Below, one piece after another: positions 56 through 41,296 of a stretch of 48,994 bases of DNA. The translations under genes were made by a program, and so were the position numbers. Under the pieces are notes generated by a model that saw only the letters and a list, made by a program, of their open reading frames with translations, did not search any database and was not told the origin of the DNA. Location: the NCBI GenBank assembly GCA_964016885.1, contig CAXHJY010001011.1, positions 1 through 48,994 of the forward strand, in the 5' to 3' direction. The stretch comes from Eledone cirrhosa. Taxonomy: Eukaryota. Positions within the stretch are counted from its first letter, which is position 1, and every line of letters starts with the position of its first letter.

Positions 56-122
56 TTTTATTATGCGCATTTCAAAAACAAACATCATCAAGCAATAATA
101 TTTGTGTTTTCATCAGATAAAA
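56..122 (-). ncRNA. Type I hammerhead ribozyme (variant H1)
   Basis: Minus strand: TTTTAT-CTGATGA-[16-bp stem II, GCTT loop]-GAAA-TGCGCA-TA|ATAAAA. Intact core, AUA cleavage triplet. Confidence 0.85.
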
Positions 123-232
123 CAGGAGAACATGATATGAAGGCTAAAAAACACTTGTTGATAGTGCAGTTTTGTTGATTTAATACTGCACTATCAACAA
201 GTGTTTTTTAGCCTTCATATCATGTTCTCCTG

Positions 233-299
233 TTGTATCTGATGAAAACACAAATATTATTGCTTGATGATGTTTGTTTTTGAAATGCGCATAATAAAA
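233..299 (+). ncRNA. Type I hammerhead ribozyme (H1), one stem I mismatch
   Basis: TTGTAT-CTGATGA(239-245)-stem II-GAAA(282-285)-TGCGCA-TA|ATAAAA. Confidence 0.8.
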
Positions 300-339
300 T
301 ATATGGAACTCCTTTAACCATCTTTTGATCTTATATTAT

Positions 340-1394
340 ATGTATATATATATATATATATATATATATGTGTATATATATATATATATATGTATATATA
401 TATATATATGTATATATGTATATATATATATATATATGTATATATATATATATATATATGTATATATGTATATATATATATATCTATATATATATATATA
501 TATGTATATATGTATATATATATATATATGTATATATATATATATATATATATATATATATATGTATATATATATATATGTATATATATATATATGTATA
601 TATATATATATATGTATATATATATATATATGTATATATATATATATATGTATATATATATATATATATATATATATGTATATATATATATATATGTTTA
701 TATATGTATATATATATATATATATATGTATATATATATATATGTATATATATATGTATATATATATATATATATATGTATATATATATATATGTATATA
801 TATATGTATATATATGTATATATATATATATATGTATATATATATGTATATATATATATATGTATATATATATGTATATATATATATATGTATATATATA
901 TGTATATATATATATATATATGTATATATATATATGTATATATATATATATATATGTATATATATATATGTATGTATATATATATATGTATGTGTATATA
1001 TATATATATATATGTATATATATGTATATATGTATATATATATATATGTATATATGTATATATATATGTATATATATATGTATATATATATGTATATATA
1101 TATGTATATATATATGTATATATATATATGTATATATATATGTATATATATATATGTATATATATATATATATATATATATATATATGTATATATATATA
1201 TGTATATATATATATATATATATGTATTTATATATATATATATATATATGTATATATATATATATATATGTATATATATATATATATGTATATATATATA
1301 TATATATATATATATATGTATATATATATATATATATATATATGTATATATATATATATATATATATATGTATATATATATATATATATATATA
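340..1394. repeat. (TA)n microsatellite with TG interruptions
   Basis: Direct reading; source of the spurious YI ORFs. Confidence 0.97.
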
Positions 1395-1616
1395 CGTTAT
1401 TCCGGGTTGAATCGGAGGTAACCACAGTAAGTAAGGTACTCAATACATAGCAGAGTATAATAGTTTTAATATAGATGAGATTCTACAGGACTAGAACTGT
1501 TTCATTCATTAGAAATCATCAGGAATCACTGATGATTTCTAATGAATGATGATTTCTAATGAATGATGATTTCTAATGAATGAAACAGTTCTAGTCCTGT
1601 AGAATCTCATCTATAT
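1395..1616 (-). mobile_element. Short Penelope-like terminal module (family H2) with inverted end, inserted in (TA)n
   Basis: IR 1469-1521 / 1564-1616; three 17-bp tandem repeats TGATGATTTCTAATGAA; near-identical copy at 15646-15806; contains an HHR. Confidence 0.65.
1479..1527 (-). ncRNA. Compact type I hammerhead ribozyme (H2)
   Basis: Minus strand: GATTC-CTGATGA-TTTCTAATGAAT-GAAA-CAG[TTCTAGTC]CTG-TA|GAATC. GUA triplet; weak stem II with a basal U.U. Confidence 0.75.
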
Positions 1617-38731: not shown

Positions 38732-39227
38732 TATGTATGTATGTATATATGTATGTATATATATATATGTATATATATATATGTATATATATATATGTAT
38801 GTATATATATGTATATATATATATGTATATATGTATGTATGTATGTTTGTATGTATGTATGTATGTATATATGTGTATTATAAACATGAGAGAGAGAGAG
38901 AGAGAGAGAGAGAGAGAGAGAGAGAGAGAGAGAGATTGCCGATACCAGAATTAGAGACATACTAGATCTGCTTCCTTGCAGGCGCCTCTGTCCACTTTTT
39001 TTTAATTACCAAAGACACCGTCCGATTTTCTTAACTATTATTTATACTGATTGACTAAGATTATTAAGGCCATTGGTACTCACAGATTTCATGGTTCATT
39101 TTTGCCCAATGCTTCTTAAACCAATAGTTTTATATCAAGCGTTAAACTAATATATTTCTTCATTGTACTGTGACGTTTGTTCGTTATTTCTGTTCACTTT
39201 TTACATACATACATACATACATACATA

Positions 39228-40167
39228 CATGATGGCTGCAAACTATGCTAAGAATATTTCAATCGCTTGTCAGATTATAGAGTTTGGTGCATTTTTAGCC
39301 TATGGCCAGCCACACGAAGCTGTAACAGATCCTGAACAAGCAATGCCTGTGCTTTGAAGGGTTTTTTAAAGAATCACACTTGTATACATATGTGTATAAT
39401 TAAATATGTAATAATTTCCTACCATCAGTAAATAAATCACTAAATATCTTCGTTGTGGAAATATCCAAAGGGTTATATGGATTGGCAGTATCGGTGGAGC
39501 GTCAGACACCATGATTTGCAGCATAGAGTTATGGCCCTTTACGGCCTGAGTTCAAATCCCTCCGAGGTTAACTTTGCCTTTCATCCTTACGTAGTCGATA
39601 AGATAAGGCACCAGTAATGCACTGGGATAATTCCTGGATTTGTGCCAAAGGTAGAAACAATTATTTGGTATGGGTGAATGTGGATCGTGTGAGAGAAAAT
39701 GCGAGCTTGGTGAATTGTCAGAGTAAAATGTGTGGAAAACTTTGCAGCATAGAGTTATGGCCCTTTACGGCCTGATTTCAAATCCCTCCGAGGTTAACTT
39801 TGCATTTCATGCTTACGTAGTCAACCAATCTCACTCTCTGAGCATCGAAAAAACTACTCGAAAAGGAGAACTGATCAACATCTGTCACACCTTTCTCCTA
39901 AGAAAGGTGTGACAACAACCTGGGGCCTTTCACCAGGTGCACCCCCACTCCCTCCAAAAAAAAACTACTATTTGGATTGCCGTTGACTCTGCTGAGTTCT
40001 TCCGCCCTTTGCCGGGTCTTGTATTGCATTCCGCATGGTGTCCAAATATCACCCTCTTCCCCAAGCTAGCTTGTTGGGTTTGCCTGTTTAGTCGCCGACG
40101 ACCACCCGACCAAGAGACAGGTTGTACTGGGTTACATGTTACCAGTAGCACTTGAGAACGTCCTGAC
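39228..40167 (-). mobile_element. Older, diverged relative of the bipartite RTE element, split by an insertion at 39366-39823
   Basis: Shares CATG.TGGCTGC, AAGCAATGCCTGTGC, TCACCCTC..CCAAG and TTTAGTCGCC.ACGACC; flanked by (CATA)n. Confidence 0.65.
39366..39823 (+). repeat. Duplicate of 32673-33069 (SINE A with unique flanks) plus a re-copied SINE segment
   Basis: High identity including the non-SINE flanks. Confidence 0.88.
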
Positions 40168-40930
40168 ATACGTACATACATACACACATACATACATACA
40201 TACATACATACATACGTAAACATTTGTGAAATTATAAAACCAGAAGAACACACACACACACATACTTACACACACTCACACACACTCACACACACGCACG
40301 CACACACACACGCGCGCACACGCACACGCACACGCAGCAGCAGCAGTAGCAGCACCACCATTTTTTGTTTGCTTTGTTCCTTTTGTTGTATTTTCTTCTG
40401 TTAGCACAATATCGACTTGCCAGATATCTGGTTTGCATTAGTTGTCACAGAGCACTTAACTTGCCACAGACAGGCAAACGTCTTCTATTGTCGTCAACTT
40501 CAACTATACAGTTTCGATTTCGTTTAAGAATCATGCCTCTTAAATTACTTAACTATTCTCCTCGGTAGAAATAGAAATATCACAACGCAGACGGATGAAC
40601 ATTCATGCCTATATGTGTGTGTGTGTGTGTGTGTGTGTGTGTGTGTGTGTGTGTGTGTGATATATGTATATATATATATATATATATATATATATATTTC
40701 CCACGTGCTTACGCTCTGCTAACTCTCTAGCCCACTAAATATTAACACTTCGAATATTTAATACTGCCGGCACTAGTATCGAGCACCTTTGGCATACGCT
40801 ACTTGGCAAATAACTATATGTATCACCTATCCCTCCTTTTTCTCTCTTTCTCGATACGTAAATACTATATATATATATATATATATATATATATATGAGT
40901 AAGTATGTTTTGAAACAGTGAGCAGGTTTG

Positions 40931-41066
40931 AAATTAGAAAATAGAATAGCTTTCACCGTACATCAATACTCATCTTTTTCCATTTACCTGAGGGTTCTAA
41001 ACCCCATTATCAGGCTAAAATTTCTTTAGTCAAAAATACGGTGAAAGCTATTCTATTTTCTAATTT
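40931..41066. repeat. Perfect 30-bp inverted repeat with 76-nt spacer, abutting (TA)n
   Basis: AAATTAGAAAATAGAATAGCTTTCACCGTA / TACGGTGAAAGCTATTCTATTTTCTAATTT. Confidence 0.9.
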
Positions 41067-41233
41067 ATATATATATATATATATATATATATATATATAT
41101 ATATATATATATTATATATATATATATATATATATATATGACTATCCGGGAGCTTCCAACATGGTCGCATTCCGACATGGTCGCATTCTTTAAGGGTATG
41201 TCAATATTTGTTTATAAAACTGATCTATATTAT

Positions 41234-41296
41234 ATTTTATCTGATGAAAGCGCACCATAATTTGCTTTGGTGTCCTTGAAATATGTATAATGAAAT
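41234..41296 (+). ncRNA. Type I hammerhead ribozyme (H3), intact core, in a module (about 41140-41432) flanked by (TA)n
   Basis: ATTTTAT-CTGATGA-AAG.C.GCACCA[TAATTTGCTT]TGGTGT.C.CTT-GAAA-TATGTA-TA|ATGAAAT; distal stem I TTTATAAAACT / GGTTTTATAAA. Confidence 0.85.

Follow-up and report, generated by a model that had tools for sequence, protein, structure and literature searches.

Hammerhead Ribozymes of Penelope-Like Elements

Hammerhead ribozymes have been known in the pseudo-long terminal repeats (pLTRs) of Penelope-like retroelements (PLEs) since 2014 (PMC4209133). The stretch of DNA analysed here, contig CAXHJY010001011.1 of Eledone cirrhosa (48,994 nt, hereafter the window), is an entire small contig of a 3.0-Gb genome and contains seven hammerhead motifs, which are, as far as sequence can tell, 3' ends (3' pLTRs) of Hydra-clade PLEs. 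In each of them the fourth base pair of stem II is a pyrimidine-pyrimidine mismatch (Y.Y), which is likely kept by selection. Published systems are described below from the consulted parts of each source.

Among these, the hammerheads of Hydra-clade PLEs (Craig et al., 2021; PMC8557442) resemble those of the window in being of type I, in their position near the 3' end, in the palindromic stem III, the (TA)n targeting and the protein hallmarks, and also in that stem II often starts with U.U or C.A. The published ones mostly have a stem III insert of 7-8 nt and a short stem II, whereas the Eledone motifs have 6 nt and 22-116 nt, respectively. The min-HHR of metazoan PLEs is likewise found in pLTRs as dispersed truncated copies, with inverted neighbours 100-700 bp apart and many covarying families per genome, and is predicted to dimerize (Cervera and de la Pena, 2014; PMC4209133). 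It has an unpaired base before G10.1-C11.1, a stem I of 4-5 bp and almost no stem III, while in the Eledone motifs the extra base is absent, G10.1-C11.1 is rare and stem I often has 8 bp or more. A lone non-pair at pair 4 is seen in 2 of the 56 rows of Fig. S3 of that paper (U.U and C.A), which, in the part consulted, does not remark on it as conserved. The short-stem-III hammerheads of Lunse et al. are also linked to PLEs, have a short palindromic stem III and cleave as dimers (review PMC6765202).

In canonical metazoan hammerheads, a stem II of 4 bp is followed by a loop that meets stem I. The type I hammerheads of non-LTR retrozymes and Schistosoma share the core with the Eledone motifs, and some also share a weak palindromic stem III and dimer cleavage, but they have a 4-bp stem II, an RNnA loop 2, a UNmYN loop 1 and tandem repeats of 150-450 bp (PMC7229834, PMC2632901). 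Neither this loop motif nor tandem monomers were found in the Eledone motifs. Tested as canonical loop-loop hammerheads, these fail, as stem II runs past pair 4 without a loop bearing the 3' A and the stem I loop is not conserved. In the CChMVd(-) viroid, an internal loop of stem II is the tertiary partner, as is proposed below, but that loop is 2x6 with a conserved 3' A (PMC2632901), and the site described here is a 1x1 pyrimidine mismatch.

Seven Hammerheads With a Mismatch at Stem II Pair 4

An earlier note on the window had described five divergent hammerhead variants (H1 to H5) of one layout, with an unpaired C at the fourth position of stem II. The motifs and the H1 element ends around them are as follows:

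19..336, 19-173 on the minus and 173-336 on the plus strand: inverted pair of H1-family element 3' ends, followed by (TA)n, a typical PLE inverted insertion
56..122, minus strand: intact H1 hammerhead with C.U as pair 4 of stem II
233..299, plus strand: H1 hammerhead, stem I with a private G.A mismatch
4873..5413, plus strand: 3' untranslated region (UTR)/pLTR of an H1 Hydra-clade element, 5'-truncated, within a long (TA)n tract, 91% identical to locus L011
5310..5376, plus strand: H1 hammerhead, stem II 5323-5358, mismatch C5326.U5355, palindrome UGCGCA, predicted cut after A5370
8935..8998, plus strand: H2 hammerhead (family F1), mismatch C8952.C8976, G17 at 8991
10766..10828, minus strand: H3 hammerhead (family F4), mismatch C10810.C10789, private C.A in stem I
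26911..27052, minus strand: H4 hammerhead (family F12), 105-nt stem II arm, mismatch C27033.C26935, A17 at 26920
41234..41296, plus strand: H5 hammerhead (family F1), mismatch C41251.C41274, predicted cut after A41289

The layout (stem I - CUGA(U/A)GA - stem II - GAAA - 6-nt palindrome or near-palindrome - U-N - stem I') was recovered at all seven sites, and the reversed sequence gave 0 matches. The type I core (CUGANGA / GAAA / UH, in type I order) is complete in six copies, the exception being the U-G of the H2 copy. Stem II consists of 3 bp, a non-pair and at least 4 further pairs. All three H1 copies have C.U at this site and H2-H5 have C.C, in agreement with the earlier note, and A17 stands at 5370 and 41289, where that note had placed the cleavage sites. 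In H4, pair 1 of stem II is also a non-pair (C.A), a trait common to its family. The inverted H1 pair at 19..336 matches 5250-5413 at 97.6-98.7% in a self-BLAST.

Three of the seven copies look damaged, namely H2 by its cut site and 233-299 and H3 by mismatches in stem I. Hammerhead cleavage follows the NHH rule, which excludes G at the cut site. The H2 copy is therefore likely inactive because of G17, while U-A is found there in 47 of the family's 48 distinct copies. Minimum free energy folding recovered stems I and II with the 1x1 mismatch for H1, H2, H4 and H5; the H3 copy, with its private mismatch, misfolds.

At the gathering threshold, the Rfam models (RF00163, HH9, HH10 and others) gave no hammerhead match in the window, and no hammerhead family matched the H5 region (41195-41330) at E<=10. 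The E-value scan of the whole window was dominated by microsatellite matches (553 matches, of which the best 150 were inspected), as was the repeat search.

Conservation of the Mismatch Across Families

A position-neutral scan, in which all stem II pairs had the same weight, covered 57 stretches of 10 kb (570 kb) at round coordinates on large contigs. It found 34 hammerheads, and none in the reversed-sequence control. Non-pairs at stem II pairs 1 to 8 numbered 15, 0, 1, 19, 5, 3, 1 and 8, respectively, and all 19 at pair 4 are Y.Y, from 8 of 14 clusters, while Y.Y is seen at most once at each of pairs 2, 3, 5, 6 and 7. In a larger set, 191 distinct motifs of this genome with a stem II of at least 19 nt fell into 29 clusters at 80%, of which 15 have Y.Y at pair 4; these loci were partly fetched by family and are non-random, and several clusters are single copies. 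The mismatch clusters have C.C in nine cases and C.U and U.C in three each, and so the C is not invariant, contrary to the earlier note. All 15 have the 6-nt palindrome, 12 have a U-A site and 4 have G10.1-C11.1.

Thirteen mismatch motifs of similar length, picked by hand with H4 and the U.C families set aside for their long inserts, were aligned. In all 13 motifs pair 4 is unpaired, while both sides vary at all seven other positions of stem II; in each of stems I and II, this holds for 7 of 8 pairs. The observed pairing was reached by 0 of 500 shuffles, and slid controls dropped to 30-51%. The proteins of different mismatch families are only 26-59% identical. These data support the structural subclass of PLE-type hammerheads that the earlier note had proposed. 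Covariation is strong and extends over all three stems. The five variants of that note are not all independent, as H2 and H5 form one family group with open reading frames (ORFs) about 80% identical, and H2, H3 and H5 merge into one cluster at 80%.

Hydra-Clade Elements as Carriers

No PLE ORF was found in the window itself. In copies elsewhere in the genome, the hammerheads of H1, H2/H5, H3, H4 and F6 lie 0.8-1.7 kb downstream of the ends of ORFs that encode a reverse transcriptase and a GIY-YIG nuclease; in L011, the UTR matching 4873..5413 stands behind the end of a GIY-YIG ORF. The automatic step missed the H4 link because the H4 UTR holds a short TA run, and this link rests on separate evidence. 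The link is weak for F2, and none was found for F9. The Pfam GIY-YIG match is weak (E 0.012). The carrier ORF has RW(R/K), DKT, YRDD, a CxCx5C linker (CNCRxxxxC), a C-terminal CxxC (CxLCxxE) and CxH and a C-terminal endonuclease (EN), without CCHH. These hallmarks match those of the Hydra clade, and YRDD is also present in published Hydra proteins (Craig et al., 2021; PMC8557442).

The distance from the cut site to the TA run has a median of 43-61 nt in 10 of the 14 largest groups, and copies end there, often with an inverted neighbour. Inverted, 5'-truncated copies are found at 19-336 and at many other loci. Three loci (L261, L264 and L310) hold two hammerheads on the same strand, 3.4-3.8 kb apart with the ORF between them, as direct repeats. 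The C-terminal EN, DKT and Hydra motifs exclude the Naiad clade, which has an N-terminal GIY-YIG, DKA and no canonical hammerhead (the "half-core" hammerheads of Craig et al.). Non-LTR retrozymes, which are short head-to-tail repeats without an ORF, are excluded too, since the copies are truncated PLE ends. Where the earlier note had named PLEs or retrozymes as the context, the ORF links speak for Hydra-clade PLEs, and no tandem unit carrying a hammerhead was found in the window.

Abundance and Age of the Families

H1, H4 and H3 are dispersed in the genome, with at least 53, 41 and 52 matches, respectively. H5 words are too common for a DNA search, and its copies were counted by exact pattern; a 19-mer from the 3' half of H5 occurs 18,689 times, its control not at all. 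The C at position 11.4 is present in 17,994 of these, which shows inheritance from founders rather than selection on each copy. Extrapolation from the 570-kb scan gives roughly 100,000 motifs in the genome, a rough figure in which inverted pairs count twice.

The H4 family is very young. Its copies are 100% identical over 231 nt in 40 of the 40 full-length best matches, the family, which the window holds at 26735-27580, has dozens of identical copies, and a relative (L014) has a 727-aa open frame. Its sequences suggest that the family is likely still, or was recently, active. Close H4 relatives also occur in runs labelled as several other organisms. The H4-type motif is present on contigs of three such runs (C, E and F), and no change is listed at the two mismatch bases wherever these are covered. 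As the contigs come from close relatives (80-99% alike), this shows presence but not deep conservation.

Limits of the Mismatch Lineage

Genome-wide, the mismatch is conserved in the 15 clusters named above, but it is limited to one lineage. Protein trees were built from the proteins of this genome and metagenome relatives, with the alignment anchored on the H4-type protein and some rows consisting of the nuclease only. The external set was thinned from 44 to 34 to 8, and the F2 row was omitted both from the monophyly test and from the tree with the Shimodaira-Hasegawa-like approximate likelihood ratio test (SH-aLRT) and ultrafast bootstrap (UFBoot). The mismatch families form one clade of nine rows together with F23, F26-like and F29 (SH-aLRT 99.4, UFBoot 69; FastTree 0.993), whose interior is not resolved. 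In a shortened search with 2,000 replicates, monophyly of the mismatch families was not rejected (approximately unbiased test, p-AU 0.235).

The three sister families pair position 4, with G-C in F29, G.U in F26-like and C-G in F23. A single change leads from C.C or C.U to each of these states, which is compatible with reversion but no proof of it. The paired sister families tend to a U-C cut site and the mismatch families to U-A, a possible coupling; F29, represented in the window at 8749-8790, mostly has U-C.

Outside this genome, 87 Hydra-type PLE loci (78 + 9) were collected from contigs of metagenomes and metagenome-assembled genomes (MAGs). Y.Y at pair 4 was found in 0 of the 61 ORF-linked hammerheads among them (99 nuclease ends), and pair 4 was unpaired in none of the 14 external clusters with a long stem II; one unlinked candidate (L168) has C.A. 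Covariance model R1 gave a single match on the 87 loci (E 0.08), lacking the hammerhead core, which is weak as a null result, R1 being AT-rich and derived from this genome. Viral contigs yielded no relatives. In the external hammerheads with a long stem II (L121-L207), G.U at pair 3 occurs in 9 of the 14 clusters and is perhaps a packing site of their own. In nine of the external loci (L199-L207), Hydra-type PLE ORFs and their hammerheads stand on contigs catalogued under bacterial MAGs, likely through contamination by animal hosts.

Read by eye, the published Hydra rows in File S2 of Craig et al. (PMC8557442), Hydra-1_oBim included, show Y.Y at pair 4 in 0 of 26. A conserved pair-4 Y.Y was likewise not found in the hammerhead and PLE literature, including PMC7229834, PMC6765202, PMC13282606, PMC3088659, PMC11167929 and a bioRxiv preprint of 2026, where the search took in text but not figures or Repbase, which leaves the absence uncertain. 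The mismatch is therefore a lineage-restricted variant, apparently undescribed, within a known pairing of ribozyme and retroelement.

Possible Role of the Mismatch

With moderate confidence, we read these motifs as Hydra-clade PLE 3' pLTR hammerheads, of which one lineage has a likely selected Y.Y site at pair 4, where a long, loop-less stem II would pack against stem I. Rather more tentatively, the single mismatch in the long stem II may replace the loop-loop contact by a helix-to-helix docking, possibly allowing efficient dimer cleavage at physiological Mg2+. Stem II continues for at least 8 bp, and the mismatch, level with the canonical loop, would instead be a flexible, narrowed site, likely a docking or hinge point. 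Its partner would be the stem I helix itself rather than a conserved loop, and the mismatch would help without being essential. An internal loop of stem II serving as a tertiary partner has a precedent in CChMVd(-) (PMC2632901).

The monomer would cut poorly, as its stem III is only the 6-nt palindrome between A15.1 and U16.1, a suggestion drawn from known PLE hammerheads. Paired through an 8-nt palindrome, two hammerheads would cut after U-A; they could belong to separate RNAs or, more probably, to the two pLTRs of one read-through transcript. Inverted neighbours, such as those at 19-336, would fold back on each other without cutting. Dimer cleavage has been described for PLE hammerheads (PMC4209133; review PMC6765202), and for the palindromes a duplex is predicted at -2.2 to -10.5 kcal/mol, while the corresponding hairpin comes out at +2.4 to +4.7. 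Genomic copies extend about 45-60 nt past the cut site, so the RNA template from which they were copied would have been uncut at its 3' hammerhead.

Several points weigh against this reading. The dimer helix of H3 and H5 is weak (-2.2), no stem I feature covaries with the mismatch, and the known loop motif requires a 3' A in loop 2 (PMC2632901), which is absent here. The shuffle controls overstate significance because the families share ancestry. The paired state of F23, F26-like and F29 also counts against it, the more so as F29 is abundant (2,517 first-look candidates). Cleavage by published metazoan PLE hammerheads is slow, in dimers too (PMC4209133), and insertion of a Poseidon PLE in vitro did not need hammerhead cleavage, nor were RNA ends found at the site (PMC11167929). 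A flipped-out U1.7 as the contact base was ruled out as a general solution, as this residue, although U in most families, is paired, and is C, A or G in F2, F6, F14 and F27.

Among the other explanations, it is unlikely that the mismatch is a recognition mark for the reverse transcriptase or endonuclease of the element, or for a host protein, near the start of reverse transcription, with little catalytic role. The hammerhead does lie about 45-60 nt from the element 3' end in most families, the mismatch tracks one protein clade, and the template of the Poseidon PLE is uncut RNA on which reverse transcription starts internally at structured RNA (PMC11167929). The sequence around the mismatch, however, varies freely, the carrier proteins differ at over half of their residues, and the constant spacing of the mismatch from the catalytic core, level with the known tertiary contact, suggests a feature of the ribozyme fold.

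A brake on cleavage is also rather improbable. The 2-3 bp left beside the core would slow folding or cutting, so that the 3' hammerhead stays uncut in the RNA that is copied, and the strand beyond the cut site is indeed retained in all full genomic copies. The rarity of G10.1-C11.1 and the preference for U-A over U-C among the mismatch clusters agree with this, but any mismatch or a shorter stem would suffice, and the strict Y.Y and its fixed position are left unexplained. Moreover, hammerheads with a 2-bp stem II are common and active (PMC3088659).

It seems very unlikely that one successful PLE lineage simply inherited the mismatch as a neutral peculiarity. The restriction to a single lineage, the closure to a pair in three families and the monophyly of the mismatch group, which is not rejected, would suit this. 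However, every neighbouring pair of stem II has changed on both sides while pair 4 remained Y.Y, switching only among pyrimidines, which argues against neutral inheritance, and non-pairs are rare at pairs 2, 3, 6 and 7 of the scanned hammerheads.

The least probable is the contact proposed in the earlier note, in which C.C meets a conserved internal loop of an extended stem I closed at a downstream GG: the extension can be drawn for each window copy and the commonest residue at 1.7 is U, but the GG lies 12, 14, 17, 25 and 19 nt past the cut in H1-H5, and the variants thus share no loop geometry. Stem I forms an uninterrupted helix that is 8-10 bp long in some families and 4-6 bp in others, no loop in it is conserved, its pairs 5-8 share no loop start, and F2 and F6 lack the extension in the predicted duplex.

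Other Repeats in the Window

Like the Hydra-clade carrier, two truncated hammerhead halves had escaped the earlier note:

8238..8354, strand not assigned: inverted duplicate from a further hammerhead family with a long stem III and a U-C site, comprising the 3' half and truncated inside stem II
8749..8790, plus strand: 3' half of an F29-family hammerhead, a family with G-C at pair 4

The family at 8238-8354 has 62,608 exact 19-mer matches in the genome (control 0) and stands behind a Hydra-type nuclease. Most of its copies are inverted and truncated inside stem II. The full copies (L241 +2268, L049 +291, L106 on the minus and L090 on the plus strand) have a 5-bp stem III with the palindrome GAGCUC in its loop, a one-base bulge at position 3 or 4 of stem II and a U-C site, and this family could cut as a monomer. 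Three of the four have a U3-A8 core and one has C3.A8; the U3-A8 core is known from Schistosoma Cercyon PLEs.

Repeats of about 185 nt, similar to short interspersed elements and 82-95% alike, are found at 11980-12170, 24950-25150, 31157-31345 and 33100-33285, and the same family also at 34450-34633, 39478-39670, 43050-43225 and 45472-45660. A 570-nt repeat forms an inverted pair with further partial copies at 36802-38736 and recurs at 47909-48150. At 1470-1615, an inverted repeat around a 17-nt tandem (TGATGATTTCTAATGAA x3) lies between TA runs and is probably another truncated, inverted element end.

Significance

The identity of the elements as PLEs is unchanged by the mismatch. Rfam models and descriptors that require a paired stem II overlook a very large set of ribozyme motifs. 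Families with C.C, C.U and U.C, together with sister families in which the pair is closed, offer a natural experiment. PLE hammerheads are slow in vitro and were dispensable for insertion in the one element that has been reconstituted. That a non-canonical pair has kept its position in PLE families with proteins differing by over half argues for a fold under selection in vivo. If the proposed docking is true, a single animal genome would hold roughly 100,000 copies of a hammerhead with a loop-free docking mode not described for natural hammerheads.

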